This document shows positions 1,990 through 21,173 of a DNA stretch of 21,173 nucleotides, one piece after another (position 1 is the stretch's first letter; every line of letters starts with the position of its first letter). The notes beneath the pieces are model-generated. The model saw nothing but the letters and a program-made list of their open reading frames with translations. It was not told the DNA's origin and made no database searches. Made by a program: the position numbers and the translations under genes. The stretch lies in the UHGV virus genome UHGV-0100642. One strand, given 5' to 3'. The stretch is from a virus.

Positions 1990-2508
1990 ATGAATCATCA
2001 ATTGGCTAATCTCGATTTCCGGGACATGGTGGTTGTTTCTGGTGATCGCGTGATCACAACCTCCCGCAAGGTAGCATCTTACTTCGACAAGCAGCATCAC
2101 CACATCATTCAGAAAATCGAAAAGCTAGACTGTTCGGATGAATTTCTAACCAGCAACTTTTCGCGGGTTACCTATGAACACAAGGGTAATCAGTATGTTG
2201 AATATGAAATTTCCAAAGACGGTGCGATGTACATCATCATGTCGTTTACCGGCAAAAAAGCTGCCGCCATCAAAGAGGCGTTTATCAAAGCATTTAATTG
2301 GATGCGTGACAGGCTGATGGAGATGGCTCACTCATACCAAAGAGAGCACAACGAGTTAATGCTGGAGTTCATGAAGGAAAAGGATGTTGCCAGTATGTCA
2401 GGACGCTTGCTGAACCGCTGGGGCAGGATCAAAAAACCGCAACTCATAGCAAGAATCGAAAGGCTTGAGCAGCAGGCGCAAATATCGATCCCCGGACTGC
2501 CAAAGTGA
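1990..2508 (+). CDS. rha: Rha-family phage regulatory protein (pRha domain)
   Basis: N-terminal region MNHQLANLDFRDMVVVSGDRVITTSRKVASYFDKQHHHIIQKI resembles the Phage_pRha domain. P22 carries rha at this same position between lysis genes and terminase. Start chosen at the ATG at 1990 (AAAGG upstream); the 1777 start in the track would read through the terminator hairpin. Confidence 0.75.
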   Translation: MNHQLANLDFRDMVVVSGDRVITTSRKVASYFDKQHHHIIQKIEKLDCSDEFLTSNFSRVTYEHKGNQYVEYEISKDGAMYIIMSFTGKKAAAIKEAFIKAFNWMRDRLMEMAHSYQREHNELMLEFMKEKDVASMSGRLLNRWGRIKKPQLIARIERLEQQAQISIPGLPK

Positions 2509-2802
2509 CCATTCCAAAGCCCATCTACGGGTGGGCTTGATAATGAAACCAGAATTTATTCTGGGCAACCAGTTACGGCAGTACCACGAAACAACCCAAG
2601 CCAGTAAGTGGGGAAATAACACTGGCAGCCACTGAAAGATGAACCTCCAGCCTTATGGCAAAAAAGATTCTTTGTGGTGGCGGACTGATGGAAAGACATC
2701 GGTTATTGCAGAGGCCATTCAATGAGTGGTCTCGACAATGGCTTATACCCTACACGGGATAACTTAACTGATATCCCTTTTAACGGATAAACGGAGCCAA
2801 CA

Positions 2803-3045
2803 ATGGCAGAGATTATTCCCATGACTGAAGAACAGAAATTCCAGTTAGAGATTTACAAGCTGGTCATGAACCAGAACGCAGCCGCAGAAGAAGCATTTCA
2901 GTTCATTGGCACTGACGAGCTGAAGCTTGAGCTATTCAAAATTCACTTCCAGTCAGGCGGCGCTAATTCAGATATCACGACCCGCACTATCGAAGCGGTG
3001 CGTAAATCGAAGGAAGCGTTAGACCTGTTCACTACCGGAGCATGA
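2803..3045 (+). CDS. Hypothetical small protein (80 aa), moron ORF
   Basis: ORF with GGAG 8 nt upstream of the ATG, followed by a terminator hairpin. No family recognised. Confidence 0.45.
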   Translation: MAEIIPMTEEQKFQLEIYKLVMNQNAAAEEAFQFIGTDELKLELFKIHFQSGGANSDITTRTIEAVRKSKEALDLFTTGA

Positions 3046-3082
3046 TGCTCAACCTGAAATAACAAATAAGTGAGATGAATAT

Positions 3083-3107
3083 GGCAGCACTCAACATGCT
3101 GCCTTTT
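3083..3107. terminator. Bidirectional intrinsic terminator between convergent ORFs
   Basis: Perfect 7-bp stem ggcagca/tgctgcc, 7-nt loop, TTTT on the + side and an A-rich stretch on the 5' side (T-rich on the - strand). Lies between the + ORF ending at 3045 and the - ORF ending at 3121. Confidence 0.55.
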
Positions 3108-3120
3108 ATAGTTGATTAGT

Positions 3121-3360
3121 TTAACCGCGAGCTTCACGACCGTTTTCGTCTTCAGGCACACGGAAACGCCAGTACTTATCTGGCTTAACCCAAACAACAC
3201 TTTCACCGCTATCAACCCTGAATTTATTAATCACTTTTGTTGATAGCGCTTGGTTGCCATCCGCATTTTCTTTGAGGTGCTGCTCGTTATGTTGTTTAAC
3301 GAGATAATCCACAACATCCTGCTGATAAAGGCAACCATCTGTTGATAAAACGGACATCAT
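3121..3360 (-). CDS. Hypothetical small protein (79 aa), opposite strand to the late operon
   Basis: ORF on the - strand downstream of, and co-oriented with, the DUF2158-like gene. Weak ribosome-binding site. No family recognised. Confidence 0.4.
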   Translation of the reverse strand: MMSVLSTDGCLYQQDVVDYLVKQHNEQHLKENADGNQALSTKVINKFRVDSGESVVWVKPDKYWRFRVPEDENGREARG

Positions 3361-3404
3361 CCATGATGAAATATCATCAAGAGTTAAGGTTGGTGTGTTT
3401 GGGA

Positions 3405-4141: not shown

Positions 4142-5550
4142 CCTCGATTAATCCTATCTTTGAACCGTTCATTGAGGCGCATCGCTACAAAGTCGCCAAA
4201 GGCGGTCGAGGTAGCGGTAAGTCATGGGCAATTGCGAGACTGCTTGTTGAAGCGGCGCGTCGGCAGCCAGTGCGTATTCTCTGCGCTCGTGAACTGCAAA
4301 ACAGTATCAGCGATTCGGTAATCCGGTTGCTTGAAGACACCATCGAGCGTGAAGGGTATTCGGCTGAGTTTGAAATTCAGCGTTCAATGATTCGTCATCT
4401 CGGAACGAATGCTGAATTCATGTTCTACGGCATCAAAAACAACCCGACGAAGATTAAATCGCTCGAAGGTATTGATATCTGCTGGGTGGAAGAAGCGGAG
4501 GCGGTAACGAAGGAATCATGGGATATCCTGATACCAACCATCCGTAAGCCGTTCTCTGAAATATGGGTGAGCTTTAACCCGAAAAACATCCTCGACGATA
4601 CCTATCAGCGATTCGTCGTAAATCCTCCAGATGATATTTGCCTGCTGACGGTGAACTACACCGACAACCCGCACTTTCCTGAAGTTCTCCGTCTGGAGAT
4701 GGAAGAGTGTAAACGCAGAAATCCGACACTGTATCGTCACATCTGGCTTGGTGAGCCAGTAAGCGCAAGTGATATGGCAATCATCAAACGTGAATGGCTT
4801 GAAGCCGCAACCGATGCGCACAAGAAACTCGGATGGAAAGCGAAAGGCGCTGTTGTCTCTGCGCATGACCCATCAGATACAGGGCCAGATGCTAAAGGTT
4901 ATGCATCGCGTCACGGTTCGGTAGTTAAGCGCATTGCCGAAGGTCTGCTGATGGACATCAACGATGGTGCTGACTGGGCTACTTCGCTGGCGATTGAAGA
5001 CGGCGCTGACCACTACCTGTGGGATGGTGATGGTGTTGGTGCCGGGCTACGCAGACAGACAACGGAAGCGTTCTCCGGTAAGAAAATCACCGCCACGATG
5101 TTCAAGGGTAGCGAATCGCCATTCGATGAAGATGCGCCTTACCAGGCCGGAGCATGGGCTGATGAAGTCGTGCAGGGCGACAACGTCCGCACTATTGGCG
5201 ATGTATTCCGCAATAAGCGAGCGCAATTCTATTACGCGCTGGCTGACAGGCTGTATCTGACATATCGGGCGGTTGTTCACGGTGAGTATGCAGACCCCGA
5301 CGACATGCTGAGTTTCGACAAAGAAGCGATAGGCGAGAAGATGCTGGAGAAGCTGTTTGCAGAACTGACGCAGATTCAGCGCAAATTCAATAACAACGGG
5401 AAGCTGGAGCTTATGACTAAGGTCGAAATGAAGCAGAAGCTCGGTATTCCATCTCCTAACCTGGCTGATGCGCTGATGATGTGTATGCATTGCCCGGCAT
5501 TGGTCCGCGAAGAAACTGAAATATACGTTCCCTCATCCTCCGGTTGGTAA
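4138..5550 (+). CDS. Terminase large subunit (ATPase/nuclease)
   Basis: Walker A motif KVAKGGRGSGKS near the N-terminus, 470 aa, positioned between the small terminase and the portal. Confidence 0.93.
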   Translation: MTSINPIFEPFIEAHRYKVAKGGRGSGKSWAIARLLVEAARRQPVRILCARELQNSISDSVIRLLEDTIEREGYSAEFEIQRSMIRHLGTNAEFMFYGIKNNPTKIKSLEGIDICWVEEAEAVTKESWDILIPTIRKPFSEIWVSFNPKNILDDTYQRFVVNPPDDICLLTVNYTDNPHFPEVLRLEMEECKRRNPTLYRHIWLGEPVSASDMAIIKREWLEAATDAHKKLGWKAKGAVVSAHDPSDTGPDAKGYASRHGSVVKRIAEGLLMDINDGADWATSLAIEDGADHYLWDGDGVGAGLRRQTTEAFSGKKITATMFKGSESPFDEDAPYQAGAWADEVVQGDNVRTIGDVFRNKRAQFYYALADRLYLTYRAVVHGEYADPDDMLSFDKEAIGEKMLEKLFAELTQIQRKFNNNGKLELMTKVEMKQKLGIPSPNLADALMMCMHCPALVREETEIYVPSSSGW

Positions 5551-13950: not shown

Positions 13951-14643
13951 ATGTTATATGCATTTAAGCTGGGCAGAAAACTGCGCGGCGAGGAACCTTA
14001 TTGCCCTGAAAAAGGCGGGAAAGGTGGCAGTTCTGATAAAAGCGCAAAGTATGCAGCAGAAGCTCAGAAGTATGCTGCAGATCTGCAAAATCAGCAGTGG
14101 CAGACGATCATGAAAAACCTTGCTCCGTTCACGCCTCTTGCGGAGCAGTATATTAACCAGCTTCAGAACCTTTCCAGTTTAGAAGGACAGGGGCAGGCAC
14201 TTAATCAGTATTACAACTCTCAGCAGTATAAAGACCTTGCAGGGCAGGCGCGTTACCAGAGTCTTGCTGCTGCGGAGGCGACGGGTGGACTTGGTTCGAC
14301 AGCCACAAGCAATCAACTGGCTACGATCGCGCCGACACTCGGTCAGTCTTGGTTATCAAATCAGATGAGCAATTACAACAATCTGGCAAACGTTGGGCTT
14401 GGTGCGCTGCAAGGTCAGGCAAACGCCGGGCAGACGTACGCCAACAACATGAGCAGCATTGCACAGCAAAGCGCAGCTCTTGCCGCTGCTAATGCCAATA
14501 AACCATCAAGTCTTCAGACTGCAATTAGCGGTGGCACGTCTGGTGCGATTACCGGTGCAGGTCTTGCCAGCCTTTTGGGAACATCAACACCTTGGGGCGC
14601 TGGAATTGGTGCTGGTATCGGATTGCTTGGCTCGTTGTTTTAA
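13951..14643 (+). CDS. Ejection (injection) protein, P22 gp7-like
   Basis: 230 aa; N-terminus MLYAFKLGRKLRGEEPYCPEKGGKGGSS resembles P22 gp7. Q/N/G/A-rich low-complexity body. GGGAG RBS. Confidence 0.8.
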   Translation: MLYAFKLGRKLRGEEPYCPEKGGKGGSSDKSAKYAAEAQKYAADLQNQQWQTIMKNLAPFTPLAEQYINQLQNLSSLEGQGQALNQYYNSQQYKDLAGQARYQSLAAAEATGGLGSTATSNQLATIAPTLGQSWLSNQMSNYNNLANVGLGALQGQANAGQTYANNMSSIAQQSAALAAANANKPSSLQTAISGGTSGAITGAGLASLLGTSTPWGAGIGAGIGLLGSLF

Positions 14644-14652
14644 GGGGTAATC

Positions 14653-16041
14653 ATGGCTACTTGGCAAGGAACAAACGGCGGATTGTTGGCTGGTATCGGC
14701 GGCGTCAACTCAAACGCTCCGAGCGTAAATGACATCGGCAATACGCTTCAGCTTATCAGGCAGAACAATGATATTGAGCGTTCAGGCGCTAACAATGTTG
14801 GGCTGACTGCTTTGCAAGGCCTTTCAGGTATTGCGGGTGTTTTTCAGCAGGAAAAGCAGGCTCAGCGGAAGAAAGAATTTCAGCAGGCATACGCTAATGC
14901 TTATGCGTCTGGTGATCGCGGTGCTTTGCGTCAGTTAGCTACTCAATATCCAGACCAGATTGAATCCGTTCGTAAAGGCATGGGATTCATTGATGAAGAC
15001 CAGCGCAATTCCATCGGTACCTTAGCGGCTGGCGCCCGCCTTGCGGCATCGTCTCCAGAAGCGATGCAATCATGGCTGCAAAACAACGCCAAGGAACTGA
15101 CTCGCGTCGGTGTTGACCCTAATAACGTTGCTCAGATGTATCAGCAGAATCCTTCAGGATTTGGTGAGTTTGTTGATCACCTTGGGATGGCTGCTCTTGG
15201 TCCGATTGATTACTTCAATGTTCAGGACAAGATGGCTGGTCGTGAAATTGATCGCGGAAAACTTGCAGAGACAATCCGCAGCAATCAGGCTGGCGAGGCG
15301 CTAACAGCACGAGGCCAGAACATCACGATGCGCGGTCAGGACTTATCTGCTTCTACTGCGCGACGAGGTCAGGATTTGGCAATGCAGCGAGCGTCAACAA
15401 GAGGAATCGCTGGGAATGATGAGCGTACAGTTCAGTTATCAGATGGCAGAACTGTAACGGTAGGCGGGAAGCTTCACGGCGCTGGGGCTAATGCGTTCTA
15501 CGAAGGCGTCGACAACGAGGGGAATATGGTTCGCGTTCCTGCCAGTTCAATCGCAGCGCCTGCAACATCGTCTGCATCAGCACAAAACTATGCCATGAAG
15601 AAGGATATCGACGCGATCACAAATGCAGACGCTTCTGCTCTCGATTTCATGACAGGAATGACAGGCGGTGCAGGTAATCCAGCAATTGGTGCTGATGTTC
15701 GCAGCAGATTAACAGGAAAAGAGCAGCGCCAGTTATATAACTCAGCACAACGGATTCAGGGCAGAATGCAGAATCAGGGTGTGGCGGCAGCAAGGGACAT
15801 GGGTGCCAGTGGTATTAACACCGTTGCAGAAGCGAAGATGTATTTTCAGGGGATGCCGCAGGTTGACTATTCAAGCCCGGAGGCTATGCAGCAGTCGATT
15901 CGTGAGATTCAGGAATACACCAACAATTACAACCAACAATATAACGTTAATGTTGGTAAATCTCAGCGGCAGCAATCTCAACCTGCACAGGTATCACAGC
16001 CAGCAGCCAGCAGTAACTTTTCTTCACTATGGGGTGATTAA
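14653..16041 (+). CDS. Ejection protein, P22 gp20-like
   Basis: 462-aa ORF following gp7. Assignment by conserved gene order (gp7, gp20, gp16) and composition. Confidence 0.7.
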
Positions 16042-18038
16042 TGGCTAAAGCATGGAAAGATGTTATCGCCTCTCCACAGTATCAGGCGTTATCACCAGAA
16101 CAAAAAGCGCAGGCTCAGGAGCAATACTTCAATGAAGTCGTGGCCCCGCAAGCCGGAGAAAATGCAGAGCAGGCTAAGCAAGCTTTCTATGCTGCCTATC
16201 CATTGCCATCTGTGCAGCCAGTGGAGACACAACAACCAGAAGCACAGCAACAACCACAGCAAACTGGATTTATGTCTGATCTTGGTGAAGCCGTGAAAGA
16301 AACTGGTCGCGGACTGGTGCAGGCTGGCGTGAACGTGGCAAACATACCTGCATCAGTTGCCGATGCTGTAACAAGCGCTGCGGCTTGGGCTGGCGGTAAA
16401 CTCGGTATTGGCGATGGTACATATCAACCAGCGCCACGAGTAACAACGCAGGGATTAGAGCAGGACTTTGGCCTTCAGCAAGGTGCGCTGACTCCACAAA
16501 CGACAGAGGGAAGGGTATTTGCTGAAGCATTGCCTTACCTCACTCCTGCTGGCGTTGAGAGAGCGGCGGTACAGGCACCAACACTTGCAGGTCGAATTGC
16601 TCAGGGGGCAACTCGCCTTCTAGCAGAAAACGCAGTTGGATCACTTGCTGCAAATAGTGCGAAAGATGATGCGGAAGCACTCGCCACCGATTTAGGCGTT
16701 GGTGTGCTGGCTGGCGGTGCTATTAACGCTGCCGGACGTGGATTAAGTGCTGCTTATCGTGGCGTTCGTGGTGCTATTGCGCCAGAAGCGCAGCAGGCTA
16801 TCAGATTTGCAGAGCGTGAAGGAGTTCCTCTGCACACCACAGACCTGTTACAACCAACTTCCCGCGTCGGAAAAATGGCGCAGACTACAGCAGAAAATAT
16901 CCCTCTGGCTGGCACAAGCGGAATGAGAGCAACGCAACAGGAAGCGAGAAGCCAGCTGGTGCAGAGATTTGCCGATAAATTCGGTGAGTATGATCCAGCG
17001 GTTGTTATTGACAGCCTTAAAGCGAAAACATCAGGAATTCGTCGTGCCGCCGGTAATCGACTGGAGCAGGTTCAGAATGCTATGGTCGGAGTAAACATTC
17101 AGCCTGCGCGAGCAATTCAGCAGATTGATACAGAAATATCTAACCTACAGAAGCTTGGTAAGGTTGCTGATAACGAGACTATTTCAAAACTTCAGTCATA
17201 TCGTGATGAGCTTGTTCGCAATGCTGGCCCTGATGGTCCTGTAAATCTGGATTTGAAGCAATTAAGCGATCTGCGCAGCCAGTTCAGAATGGACGTGAAG
17301 GGTGAGCGACCAGTGTTACCAAACCGTTCCGATGCTGCCATTCAGCGCGTTTACAAGGCAATGACCGACGATATCAATGGTGCCATTGGTCAGAATCTTG
17401 GCAACGATACTCTCCGTAAATATCAGCAGGCCAATGCCGTCTACGCTGACGAAGCGGCGAAACTAAAGAATACCAGGCTGAAGAATGTTCTCATGAAAGG
17501 CGACCTGACGCCGGAAGTCGTCAACAACATGCTATTCAGCAAGAACAAATCGGAAATTAAGACGCTGTATAACTCAGTTGGTCGTGTTGGCAGGGCGCAA
17601 ATGCGCAATGGCATCATTGGAAAGGCGATGGAGAAATCTGACGGATCCCCTGACCAGTTCCTTCGGCAGCTTAACATTCTGCAAAACCAGACTGGCATCA
17701 CATTTAAGGGGCAGGACGCTGCTTATCTGAAAGGATTAAAAAACTACCTGCAATCCACGCAGCAGGCTGCAAAAGCGGCAGTAACAACACCAACAGGGCA
17801 GCAAACCATCCCGTTCATTATTGGATATGGGACGGCAATGAACCCGGCGACAACTGGCGCAGCAGTAAGCTACGGCCTTCTTGCTCGCGCCTATGAGAGC
17901 GAGCCATTCAGAAATGCAATGCTCCGAATGGCAAACACCCCACGCGGATCGACAGCGTTTGAGAAAGCCATGCAGCAAGCGCAAAAAGCGATTAATGCAC
18001 TGACGCAGGGTGCTAAGTCTGATTCGTTGTCAGAATAG
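16041..18038 (+). CDS. Ejection protein, P22 gp16-like
   Basis: 665-aa ORF, third of the ejection-protein trio. Start overlaps the previous stop (TAATG). Confidence 0.7.
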   Translation: MAKAWKDVIASPQYQALSPEQKAQAQEQYFNEVVAPQAGENAEQAKQAFYAAYPLPSVQPVETQQPEAQQQPQQTGFMSDLGEAVKETGRGLVQAGVNVANIPASVADAVTSAAAWAGGKLGIGDGTYQPAPRVTTQGLEQDFGLQQGALTPQTTEGRVFAEALPYLTPAGVERAAVQAPTLAGRIAQGATRLLAENAVGSLAANSAKDDAEALATDLGVGVLAGGAINAAGRGLSAAYRGVRGAIAPEAQQAIRFAEREGVPLHTTDLLQPTSRVGKMAQTTAENIPLAGTSGMRATQQEARSQLVQRFADKFGEYDPAVVIDSLKAKTSGIRRAAGNRLEQVQNAMVGVNIQPARAIQQIDTEISNLQKLGKVADNETISKLQSYRDELVRNAGPDGPVNLDLKQLSDLRSQFRMDVKGERPVLPNRSDAAIQRVYKAMTDDINGAIGQNLGNDTLRKYQQANAVYADEAAKLKNTRLKNVLMKGDLTPEVVNNMLFSKNKSEIKTLYNSVGRVGRAQMRNGIIGKAMEKSDGSPDQFLRQLNILQNQTGITFKGQDAAYLKGLKNYLQSTQQAAKAAVTTPTGQQTIPFIIGYGTAMNPATTGAAVSYGLLARAYESEPFRNAMLRMANTPRGSTAFEKAMQQAQKAINALTQGAKSDSLSE

Positions 18039-18128: not shown

Positions 18129-18614
18129 TTATCTGATGTTACTGCTACTGTTGCATGTGACTGTATTTCCAAACCCTGAATTGCAGTTTGTGTAAGTGTC
18201 AACTCGTGTTGGATAGGGTTGAGTTATAACAGGCTGTCTCGCTTTTTGCTCGATCGCTTGCATTGTGTTTACAGCCTGATAATTCAATAAAGCCTGCTGG
18301 AATGCTTGGCTTTGTGCTATTTGTTGTGCTTGTTCTTGGCTTTGTAATTGAACATAAAGATTCTGAAGCTCAAGTCTTGCCTGAGCGTCACTTATCTTGC
18401 CTTCATCAACACCTTGCCCGAGCATCTTTGCAGCAAGGACATACAGCTTAGGTGTTGGTGCAGATGCCATGCGTGAGTCGTTCTTCACACTGGCATCAAG
18501 GCAATTAGCCATATCGCTAAGCTTTTGATAGCGTTGTTCGCAACTTGCTTGATAGTCACTTACTTTTGCGCATCCAACCAGCAGAAGCGGGATAATTAAC
18601 AGTGATTTTTTCAT
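18129..18614 (-). CDS. Lipoprotein (161 aa), candidate superinfection-exclusion or lysogenic-conversion factor
   Basis: Signal peptide MKKSLLIIPLLLVG followed by Cys (lipobox LVGC), a Q-rich predicted helical middle and a Cys-containing C-terminus. AAGGAG 8 nt upstream of the ATG at 18614. Lies downstream of mnt on the same strand, in the position P22 uses for sieA. Confidence 0.7.
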   Translation of the reverse strand: MKKSLLIIPLLLVGCAKVSDYQASCEQRYQKLSDMANCLDASVKNDSRMASAPTPKLYVLAAKMLGQGVDEGKISDAQARLELQNLYVQLQSQEQAQQIAQSQAFQQALLNYQAVNTMQAIEQKARQPVITQPYPTRVDTYTNCNSGFGNTVTCNSSSNIR

Positions 18615-18684: not shown

Positions 18685-18951
18685 CTATGTTTCCTTTTTA
18701 TTATTGCTATACATGGTCTTAAGCGTTTCAAAAACCATTTTCCTAACCATATCGGATTGTTGTTCTGCCATACGCTCTGCATCGTCAATGTAAACTGATG
18801 CAGAGATTTGTTTATCCAATGATTCCTCAATCGCTGCAATTATCTCTGAGTTCAGCGATCTGTTATTCATCTTCGCACGCTGTTTAATTTTCGCGTGGAG
18901 TTCATGCGGAAGTCTCAAGTGAAACTGCGCCTCGTCGTATTTGCTGTACAT
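18685..18951 (-). CDS. mnt: Mnt-like ribbon-helix-helix repressor (Arc/Mnt family)
   Basis: ...NNRSLNSEIIAAIEESL...DDAERMAEQQSDMVRKMVFETLKTMY resembles P22 Mnt as recalled. AAGGA RBS before the ATG at 18951; the track start at 18984 is further upstream. Confidence 0.8.
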   Translation of the reverse strand: MYSKYDEAQFHLRLPHELHAKIKQRAKMNNRSLNSEIIAAIEESLDKQISASVYIDDAERMAEQQSDMVRKMVFETLKTMYSNNKKET

Positions 18952-19072
18952 CCTTGATGCCTCACCAGGTGGGTGGAATGGCATCGTAACTTACTGGATA
19001 AATACTCAATAGTACCATTTCGGCATGCAATCAAATCATGGTTGCACCATATCATTCGTCTGGAGCAATGAA
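18952..19072. promoter_or_regulatory. Divergent intergenic control region between mnt (-) and tailspike (+)
   Basis: 121-bp AT-rich spacer that must hold the mnt promoter and any tailspike-proximal promoter. Contains the short palindrome CACCAGGTG at 18963-18971. No promoter hexamers could be assigned confidently. Confidence 0.4.
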
Positions 19073-21173
19073 ATGTCAGATATCACCGCAAATGTTGTGG
19101 TAACCAATCCGCGCCCAATATTCACTGACTCGCGCACGTTTAAGGCTATTGCAAACGGACGCGTGTATATCGGCCTTCCTGATACCGACCCTACCATTGC
19201 TGCCAACCAAATTCCCGTTTATATCGAAAATGAGGATGGAAGATTGGTTGAAATTTATCAGCCTCTAATCATCAATGCGGCTGGTAAAATTGTATATAAC
19301 GGACAGGTTGTAAAGGTGGTAACTGCGCAAGGTCACAGTATGAAGGTCGTGGATGCTTACGGCGTTCAAGTCGACTACATCAGTAACATTCTTAAGTATG
19401 ATCCGGACCAGTTCAGAAACTTTGCCTTAGAAAACTTTGATTACTCAATTTATAAGCGCATTGTGGGATTTTCTTTCTTCACTGGCGCGACCGTTACGGA
19501 TTCCAAGCACACCCTCATTTGGGATTCAACTAATGGAGGAAACGGACATTATTATCGGTATCTTGGAACCATCCCTAATGGCGGCCTTGTAGTTCCACCG
19601 GCCAGCACTCCTGACTCAAACTGGGAAGACATAGAGCTTAATCAGATAGTCAGCATCCGAAAACTAAACGAGCTTTCCACGCAAAGCATCGCAGGCTATA
19701 TCGGCGTCAATATTGATATGCCGGTGGCAGTGAAGGATTCTGACAATCAGGGCGCGAAAATTAGCTCTGGTGTCTGCGTAACAAATCCGGTGCCCAACGC
19801 AAATATTATCAGAGCCACTAAAATTCAGTCTGTATTCAGAATTGATGGAGATAATGTCACAATTAGAGATGTTGTTGGGCTAGGTTCTGCCGCTTCTGAT
19901 AATGCTGCCACATCGGAATTCATCACCACTCGCATGCGATTCGTGGTCGATGGGCTGAGAACAAAAGGCCTGCGTTTTACTGGAATAAAAGCTAGCAAAT
20001 TTACAACAGGAATAAACGTAACAGGTTGCGATGATGTTGTTATTAAAGACTGTTATTTCGAGGATATGCAATATTCTCCAGTAACACTTGGCTCCGCTGG
20101 AGGATATGGTGTCTTAACAGGAGCAAGTAATGGCGTTCTTGTGGATGGTCTTAAATTCAAGGCTAACGCATATGGTCGTCATGCTGTATATATTAGTAAT
20201 GTTCAGCCATATGTTGACGTAGCGACGAGCGGAAGTTTTAACACAACGGTAAGAAATTGCGATCTGGATTATACACTCGCCGATTTGACTTTGAGTGATA
20301 GTGGGTTTGCTCCTATCAACGTAAGGTCTAGTGAAAATACAATCATTGAAGAAAACAGGCTCAAAGGTTCAGCTTCTTTAGTTAGCTTCAGCAATGATCA
20401 GGGGGCGATTTCTAAATGCATCATAAGAAATAACAGGGCGGTAGGATTAAAATCAGGGCAGGGAAGAGTCTGCGCTGCATTTAATCTAGGTCGTTCTGGC
20501 ATTCCTAATCCAATCACAGATATTGAAGTAAGCGGAAACTATTCAGAGATATCAAAAGGACCAGGTCAGCCTGATGGTAATGACCAAGCTGGCAGATTTA
20601 TCGGACACAATGGGCTGAGGATTATAAGGAACCATTGCATTCAGGAGACAGGGGCCGCTTATCTTTTAGATCGATGTTCAAATTTCTTTATTGACGAGAT
20701 TACTGATATTCTGACAAACACCGCAAATCCAGCAGGCGCTCAAACAATATATCTTAACGCATGCAGTAATGGCACCATAGGCAGCATTAAAACAAACCGT
20801 CCAGCGTTTGCAAACGGTAAGTCTAATATTGTCGGCGGTCTTGCTACTTGTTCAGAAGTGACTTGCAATTTTCAAAGATATATTGAATTCACCCTAACCA
20901 AAGGAGCTGTTTCATTAGTCGATGATGCCTTTGATATGATCTCTTCTGGAGGTATATCATTTGGTGATGGATTCATTACGGTAGCCTTACGTGCTCATGT
21001 TACCGATAGGGCAGTTGCTGGATGCACCGTTTATACGCGAACCAGTAATGGTGTAATCCTTACCAAGAGTGCAATTAACGATAAAACTATCACTATAAAT
21101 TTTCTCGTATCATCAACGGGTGCTTTGCAACCTATGAGCCAATACACAGGTAGAGTTGGTATAACTTTTTACG
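19073..21173 (+). CDS. Tailspike protein, 5'-partial in window (700 codons, no stop reached)
   Basis: N-terminal ~115 aa ([34 protein letters not shown]...[11 protein letters not shown]) match the P22 gp9 head-binding domain. GGAG RBS 8 nt upstream. The rest is a divergent domain with beta-helix-like repeats. Frame is open to the last base of the window. Confidence 0.9.

Follow-up and report, generated by a model that had tools for sequence, protein, structure and literature searches.

The textbook repressor Mnt is known, to our knowledge, only for holding down the antirepressor of phage P22. What, then, does a Mnt-like protein do in a prophage in which no antirepressor gene lies beside it? 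This question is raised by a stretch of 21,173 nucleotides of a virus genome (UHGV-0100642; here, the window), which covers the late region of a P22-like (Lederbergvirus-type) prophage, with lysis genes, rha, head and ejection genes, and the start of a tailspike gene. Four genes define the locus:

16041-18038, plus strand: last ejection-protein gene of the late operon, at the position of P22 gene 16 (ORF list)
18129-18614, minus strand: lipoprotein gene, 161 aa, with lipobox MKKSLLIIPLLLVGC (LLVGC) and Shine-Dalgarno sequence AAGGAG, matching phrog_6067 over its full length
18685-18951, minus strand: mnt-like gene, 88 aa (Pfam Arc and Repressor_Mnt, PDB 1mnt and 1qey, dN/dS)
19062-21173, plus strand: tailspike gene, with Shine-Dalgarno sequence GGAG at 19062-19065 and ATG at 19073, extending past the window end

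The first of these, annotated in relatives as a DNA transfer or injection protein, forms the left border of the variable “ant moron” region, and the last encodes a Head_binding domain (score 4.6e-52). An earlier reading of this DNA from its letters alone (the sequence-only reading) placed mnt 121 bp from the tailspike start, and this distance is exact (intergenic gap 18952-19072).

The same reading took the protein for a homologue of Mnt, which proved right. Its N-terminal ribbon-helix-helix (RHH) domain matches Pfam Arc (PF03869; 3.5e-14, residues 7-47), its C-terminal domain matches Repressor_Mnt (PF11423; 4.2e-11, residues 57-81), and it further matches solved P22 Mnt (1mnt; 1.4e-17, residues 6-78) and the P22 Mnt tetramerization helix (1qey; 2.8e-06). 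Both the RHH domain and the predicted C-terminal coiled coil that forms the tetramer are present, as expected of a member of the Mnt family, and a comparison of the ORF map with the P22 annotation shows the expected position, namely a leftward gene between the last ejection gene and the tailspike. The gene is contained in a longer minus-strand ORF of 99 codons (18685-18984, ORF list), in which the second ATG, at 18951, is the real start, of an 88-residue protein beginning MYSKYDEAQF. We chose this start because a Shine-Dalgarno sequence (GGTGAGG, complement of 18960-18966) is found only here, 8 nt upstream, with none ahead of the first ATG, and because the segment between the two ATGs is freely variable in relatives and out of frame in Buttiauxella.

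Two other readings of the protein were considered and rejected. As the antitoxin of a type II toxin-antitoxin system it would lack a partner, since no toxin gene is adjacent and the downstream neighbor is either the lipoprotein gene or nothing; its matches to antitoxin families are limited to weak ones to the RHH families HicB and FitA, and PADLOC gives no match. A partition protein is equally unsuitable, since the 88 residues hold RHH and Mnt domains only, with no ATPase domain and no ParA/ParB partner. The labels “partition protein ATPase” and “chromosome segregation ATPase” are nevertheless widespread on Mnt homologues, derive from phrog_795, and also occur in RefSeq (for example, Sf101 KJ832078 14284-14577 and the RefSeq copies of P22, ST64T, epsilon34, and others). 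On RHH proteins of 83-88 aa without an ATPase domain, such a label is a propagated error.

The gene is also selectively maintained. Using the Nei-Gojobori method, we obtained a dN/dS of 0.046 for the first 36 codons (mean dS 0.50), 0.10 for the first 54 codons, and 0.12-0.15 for full-length genes compared within length groups, with dS up to saturation. Only two of about 160 copies are truncated, in a set of loci gathered by protein similarity, which favors intact copies. Altogether, these values (dN/dS 0.05-0.15) show an intact gene under strong purifying selection.

The sequence-only reading had further noted that neither arc nor ant lies between mnt and the tailspike, and a tblastn search with P22 Arc, P22 Ant, and CUS-3 Ant indeed finds neither anywhere in the window. 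The arrangement that characterizes P22 immI, in which arc and ant, together with sar, are divergent from mnt under the control of Omnt and Oarc, has no homologues in either the window or Sf101. Therefore, as that reading had suggested, Mnt must here act otherwise than by silencing an adjacent ant. The idea of a local peculiarity or a recent deletion, however, is not supported, since the orphan layout is the rule for the whole Mnt lineage and is found in hundreds of E. coli genomes.

To describe this rule, we took 80 IMG/VR loci per query for three Mnt queries and scored the genes between mnt and the tailspike. Loci with P22-class Mnt (DDPHFNFRMP) carry ant, mostly with arc, in 79 of 80 cases, whereas the gene is an orphan abutting the tailspike in all 65 loci with ST160/L-class Mnt (DDPQFNLRLP) and in 79 of the 80 loci with window-class Mnt (DEAQFHLRLP), the spacing in the latter being fixed at 121 or 135 bp. 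Orphan and ant-linked layouts thus split along the sequence class of the DNA-reading beta strand. The locus is matched in 345 of 5426 complete E. coli genomes, and the same-class mnt-tailspike layout is present in the sequenced phages Sf101, IME10, VSe13, and JEP4; a second orphan class with the same layout is represented by Gally, ST160, and SE1. A species-level genome scan yielded six loci, too few for statistics and used here as divergent examples: those in Escherichia sp., Buttiauxella, and Citrobacter are orphan as well, and the contig with the Serratia copy ends before the neighboring gene. Among these, the Citrobacter sp. locus (L364, mnt at about 3001-3234) is interrupted by a stop in frame at codon 5, and the TACC core of its operator carries a C-to-T change, so that gene and operator may be decaying together.

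Orphan mnt genes have been reported before. The epsilon34 genome paper, which names the region “ant moron”, lists ST64T, ST104, and Para1 as carrying mnt and an unknown gene only (PMC2629481), and the layout was described for ST64T, ST104, Para1, and phage L with its purpose left unexplained (PMC2629481, PMC8022706). As such, the window locus is a further example of an already described locus type, and its layout is common; new here are the class-level split, the evidence for selection, and a concrete operator candidate to test.

The closest counterparts of the window locus are Sf101, IME10, VSe13, and JEP4, whose proteins are 62-90% identical and which share the same operator and the same 121- or 135-bp spacing to the tailspike; they differ in that most are without the lipoprotein gene. 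Where their mnt copies have been annotated at all, the label is “chromosome segregation ATPase”, “partition protein ATPase”, or “Arc family”, and consequently, the layout has never been discussed for these phages. The orphan mnt genes of L, ST64T, ST104, ST160, SE1, and Gally are likewise followed by an operator and the tailspike with no arc or ant; they belong, however, to the other class (50-55% identity, DDPQFNLRLP) and have a near-perfect operator and other downstream genes. Compared with P22 itself, the fold is the same in both domains, and the gene lies between genes 16 and 9 in the same place and direction, but the protein is only 45% identical and has Q and H as DNA-reading residues in place of P22 H6 and N8. 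In addition, the window is without the Arc operator, Pant, arc, sar, and ant of P22 immI, and its tailspike leader starts right after the operator. The closest relative with a complete genome (L366, E. coli HCP5S3_I4) is a defective prophage in which IS2 copies (2150-3378 and 14179-15407) interrupt the capsid gene and adjoin the tailspike, and IS100 lies in the early region; its mnt and operator are intact.

An alignment of upstream regions with P22, in which annotated Omnt (CTCAATAGGTCCACGGTGGACCT) directly follows the -35 hexamer of Pmnt, points to the following elements:

18983-19009, minus strand: likely mnt promoter, at a position homologous to P22 Pmnt, as deduced from the alignment
19011-19027: candidate Mnt operator AGTACCATTTCGGCATG, centered on 19019, a positional match to P22 Omnt

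Every Mnt class has an operator equivalent with the same center, nine bases after the -35 hexamer, and its sequence differs by class:

P22-class operator: AGGTCCAC-N-GTGGACCT
ST160-class operator: AAGACCAC-N-GTGGTCT
window-class operator: AGTACCATTTCGGTATG

The P22 and window sites have a CC/GG pair at -4/-3 and +3/+4 in common, in addition to the same center relative to the leftward -35 hexamer; their half-sites differ, with GGTCCAC in P22 versus GTACCRT in the window class, and the ST160 class has AGACCAC. The beta-strand residue pairs are H/N (P22), Q/N (ST160), and Q/H (window class), and the half-sites differ from class to class in step with the residues that read the DNA. The beta-strand positions that vary between classes, among residues 2, 6, 8, and 10, are known to set Mnt specificity, as reportedly described by Knight and Sauer in 1989 (cited in PMC3413123).

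Conservation within classes leads in the same direction. Among 32 unique ST160-class sequences, the center base is free (A in 7, C in 4, G in 11, and T in 10) with the flanking seven positions nearly fixed, and this combination of a free center and fixed half-sites is the pattern that would be expected of a selected two-fold site. Subtypes of the window class retain the core TACC-N5-GGTA at a dS near 0.5 in the N-terminal codons; AGTACCATTTCGGTATG is carried by 65 of 79 relatives, with frequencies tabulated for protein-selected loci only, part of the sample having been chosen by the operator pattern itself. The JEP4-type operator is TACCGtttCGGTA, and the Buttiauxella relative, from another genus and 62% identical in protein, has the perfectly symmetric GTACCAtttTGGTAC. 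Moreover, the mnt cassette is linked on its right to at least four different, unrelated sequences, each starting immediately after GGTATG, and in the window the tailspike leader is joined on by a mosaic junction right behind the operator. Since the junctions all begin directly after the operator, the operator travels with mnt. We therefore regard 19011-19027 as a candidate Mnt operator, with two apparent weak points. First, it is only partly symmetric, with 3 of 8 pairs matching in the window, compared with 4-6 of 8 in most relatives and all in Buttiauxella. Second, the window copy reads GGCA in place of GGTA, a rare T-to-C change in the right half-site that it shares with a single other locus (L014).

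The leftward promoter would consist of the -35 hexamer TTGAGT (complement of 19004-19009) and the -10 hexamer TACGAT (complement of 18983-18988), separated by 15 nt, for which annotated P22 Pmnt (TTGAGA-17-TATCAT) served as the alignment reference. Among 44 unique relatives the -10 block shows no variation, and the spacer of JEP4-type relatives is 17 nt. Although the presumed promoter falls below the threshold of a consensus scan, it is the likely equivalent of Pmnt in the window; the ST160-class equivalent, by our reading of the sequences, would be TTGTGG-17-TATGAT. The counterparts of the P22 Pant hexamers are degenerate in the ST160 and window classes alike (in the window, ATGGCA-15-TAAATA). 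A minus-strand promoter-like match over the tailspike start (19079-19051) was set aside, as relatives with the other junction type do not conserve it and as it came from a scan that gives fewer matches than shuffled controls do. In the rightward direction, no promoter ahead of the tailspike reaches the threshold of the consensus (sigma-70-like) scan. The tailspike gene would therefore have to rely on read-through of the late operon across the antisense strand of the lipoprotein gene and mnt and across the operator.

Two predicted RNA structures flank these elements:

18956-18985: inverted repeat GATGCC-TCACC-loop-GGTGG-AAT-GGCATC, covering the mnt Shine-Dalgarno sequence
19027-19045, plus strand: predicted stem-loop of 7 bp (GCAAUCA-AAUCA-UGGUUGC), immediately following the operator, in the leader of the tailspike mRNA

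The inverted repeat has conserved stems and a variable loop in relatives, and its predicted folding energies are -14.9 kcal/mol on the plus strand and -12.7 kcal/mol on the minus strand, with modest z-scores (-1.8 and -2.1). It accounts for a short palindrome, CACCAGGTG, in the mnt 5′ region, which the sequence-only reading had offered as a weak hint of an operator. The palindrome does exist, at 18963-18971, but it is confined to the window and two relatives, with four other sequences elsewhere (CACCAGTTG in the majority, otherwise CACCAATTG, CACCAAATG, or CACCTAATG), and it corresponds to the tip and variable loop of the predicted hairpin over the mnt ribosome-binding site; it was therefore discarded as an operator. 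The leader stem-loop shows U.G, U-A, and C-G variants at one pair. All P22-like leaders examined have a 7-bp stem-loop, separated by about 20-30 nt from the tailspike ribosome-binding site downstream, of two unrelated types, GCAAUCA/UGGUUGC as in the window versus CCGUAGC/GCUGCGG as in P22 (L010, about 4665-4690), with compensatory or wobble changes (U.G, U-A, C-G) inside each type. A different kind of variation follows the first tailspike codons of one relative (L112, 7458-8000), where a gene for a 180-aa HNH/AP2-type homing endonuclease is inserted on the mnt strand; the insertion is also found in L133, L142, L150, L152, L161, and L171, and in E. coli H82 and H104, and the tailspike behind it restarts with a new N-terminus (MFIMPEQLYNVV...).

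Based on these elements, we propose as the most likely role, with slightly less than even confidence, that Mnt in the orphan loci would be a self-regulating, prophage-expressed repressor acting in cis at a single site on the boundary between mnt and the tailspike. The cassette would consist of mnt, its leftward promoter, and one cognate operator (19011-19027), placed immediately upstream of the tailspike leader. Tetrameric Mnt would bind this single pseudo-palindromic operator, which abuts the -35 hexamer of the mnt promoter and would lie on the sole route by which transcription can reach the tailspike gene. In the lysogen, two outputs might result: the level of the leftward prophage transcript, here including the lipoprotein gene, would be set, and rightward transcription into the tailspike gene would be obstructed. 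The analysis establishes homology, the integrity of the gene, purifying selection, the position and conservation of the operator, the absence of ant, and the lack of a second site in the phage DNA scanned; Mnt binding, use of the promoter, and both regulatory outputs are what we infer. Several points count against it. An operator upstream of the -35 hexamer is not in the classical position for repression, the putative promoter, with a spacer of 15 nt, does not pass the consensus scan, and a repressor with only itself as a target has no obvious selective value. In addition, mnt could lie beside the tailspike for historical reasons, as a vestige of the order mnt-arc-ant-9, and not because the position has a function, and we know of no harm done by tailspike expression in a lysogen.

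A bolder version of this proposal, which we consider unlikely, is that both orphan Mnt lineages form a distinct and stable cassette that targets the tailspike gene, blocking its transcription both on the prophage and on incoming phages of the same operator class. The outcome would be an immunity at the level of the tailspike, similar in effect to that of the BTP1 antisense RNA STnc6030, which is reported to confer superinfection immunity through tailspike and injection-gene transcripts (PMC7067206). STnc6030 is likewise a leftward transcript expressed by the prophage at the gene 16/tailspike boundary of a P22-like phage, and since it gives immunity from that boundary, the location can serve such a purpose, which motivates the tailspike-target reading. 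It differs in being non-coding, with neither repressor nor operator, so that the likeness is one of location and possible purpose only.

Alternatively, the cassette may be kept for what lies downstream of it, by supplying a regulated, prophage-active promoter to a neighboring gene, here that of the lipoprotein, which could have a lysogenic-conversion or exclusion function (it has no Pfam, PADLOC, or significant NCBIfam match). The spacer between mnt and the lipoprotein gene is 70 nt, both genes are on the same strand, and a search for a terminator between them found none, and so the sequence-only reading was plausible in suggesting co-transcription here. Furthermore, the lipoprotein module shared among relatives starts about 17 nt upstream of the lipoprotein ATG, just ahead of the ribosome-binding site. 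It thus has no promoter of its own, and the gene therefore probably relies on the mnt promoter in the window. The lipoprotein gene directly follows mnt in 43 of 80 relatives, and P22 has sieA at a comparable position. However, nothing is found downstream of mnt in 35 of the 80, including complete Sf101, although these relatives conserve mnt and the operator as well; in Gally, a gene of opposite orientation intervenes between mnt and the lipoprotein gene. Because it would be true at best for about half of the relatives, we consider this explanation improbable as a whole: the operon suggested by the earlier reading is not the general reason for keeping mnt, and the lipoprotein can be an output of the cassette in the window without explaining why the cassette is retained. 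The same module brings along the last approximately eleven codons of mnt (18685-18717), with TMYSNNKKET in its presence versus ELYKKDSS in copies without it, and a tail similar to TMYSNNKKET occurs in an unrelated Mnt-like gene of CUS-3. Since the tail moves with the module, recombination has taken place inside the conserved region that encodes the coiled coil.

We also searched for further copies of the 17-mer operator. The window itself has no second copy at up to three mismatches, with core matches at the chance rate. Complete Sf101 (38.7 kb), in which arc and ant are likewise missing, contains a single copy, as does a 48-kb prophage relative from E. coli; any remaining core matches in these two are at chance level and inside coding sequence. 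No operator lies near the KilAC antirepressor-like gene in the nin region of the E. coli prophage relative. An exact TACCAATATGGTA in three relatives was discarded, as it lies inside the coding sequence of an ejection protein. A collection-wide scan with GTACCRTTTYGGTATG covered 80 of more than 120 matches; among the matches listed, those in a P22-like context are always flanked by a window-class mnt and, opposite it, by the tailspike. A further six contigs, in which two matches are spaced by 515 bp, were also rejected, since they represent a repeated promoter region of an unrelated phage with no RHH gene nearby. The repeated promoter-like block, TGTGTACCGTTTCGGTATGTATATACAGCCATAGAC, occurs every 515 bp (L096, 7579 and 8094; also L101, L116, L123, L143, and L151) ahead of small leftward genes near the terminase and matches the 16-nt operator pattern exactly.

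These searches bear on the possibility that Mnt confers immunity in trans, silencing the antirepressor promoter of superinfecting relatives and thereby shielding the prophage from induction. P22 Mnt silences the antirepressor of a superinfecting phage in trans (background in PMC7380047 and PMC2629481). This established activity would account for selection on a repressor with no ant in cis. In the present case we judge it quite unlikely, as GTACCRTTTYGGTATG never precedes arc or ant among the matches listed (80 of more than 120), and phages that bear ant carry the P22-class operator instead. Moreover, phage L, of the other orphan class, was reported to be without functional immI (PMC8022706). 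Separate ant modules do occur in this phage group, and they are regulated by other Mnt/Arc-like pairs with a different palindrome. Specifically, L118, L147, and the JEP4 group carry a complete mnt′-arc′-ant′ module with its own regulators, and the window-class mnt and operator still lie between the module and the tailspike; in Serratia (L363), such a module lies beside a window-class mnt, and the contig breaks off short of whatever gene follows the operator. Since the cassette abuts the tailspike even where a separate mnt′-arc′-ant′ module is present, it is independent of ant. These antirepressor-like modules (Bro-N, ORF6N, KilAC, or Rha-type; L147 2269-4346, L118 7309-10000, L363 1072-3431, and JEP4 L004 2770-5234) are convergent with the tailspike-proximal mnt, and each has its own divergent Mnt-like/Arc-like pair with the palindrome AACCAAGTTGGTT.

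Control of more distant genes, whether rha, some other phage gene, or genes of the host, by way of additional operators is, in our view, very unlikely. This idea goes back to an AGGTGG-containing partial palindrome ahead of rha, pointed out in the sequence-only reading, and the phage group does contain Rha-type and KilAC-type antirepressor-like genes. The motif is present close to where that reading had put it (about 1921-1934). However, it forms the tip and loop region of a terminator-like stem-loop (about 1910-1953) that is followed by UUUUCU and lies upstream of the real rha start at 1990, and it was therefore rejected as an operator. With no copy of the operator candidate near rha, and no second operator in the phage DNA scanned (the window at up to three mismatches, Sf101, and the 48-kb E. 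coli prophage), the case for rha as a distant target fell away. The region between the spanin genes and rha holds two terminator-like stem-loops (1824-1846 and 1910-1953), which makes it probable that transcription of rha as part of the late operon is conditional.

Finally, the view that the locus is a decaying remnant, left without function after the deletion of arc and ant, with mnt and its operator on their way to loss, is one of two possibilities raised for phage L (PMC8022706) and would agree with the degenerate Pant equivalents, the rare half-site change in the window operator, the Citrobacter copy with a stop codon in mnt and a mutated operator, and the 2 of 160 truncated mnt copies, but we consider it highly improbable given a dN/dS of 0.05-0.15 at dS up to saturation, two whole lineages that are orphan yet intact over Escherichia, Shigella, Salmonella, Buttiauxella, and Serratia, half-sites that are conserved while the center base drifts, and junctions that always spare the operator.

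A large share of P22-like prophages thus carry an intact Mnt and operator with no antirepressor, and the literature has left open whether these are remnants or have taken on a new role. The class-linked layout, purifying selection, and covariation of operator and recognition residues argue against a remnant, and a defined 17-bp site is now available to test. If the role of orphan Mnt were autoregulation only, the finding would be an ordinary one; if its target is transcription into the tailspike gene, as the cis-acting reading allows, the locus would be new both as a use of this classic repressor and as a form of immunity encoded by a prophage.
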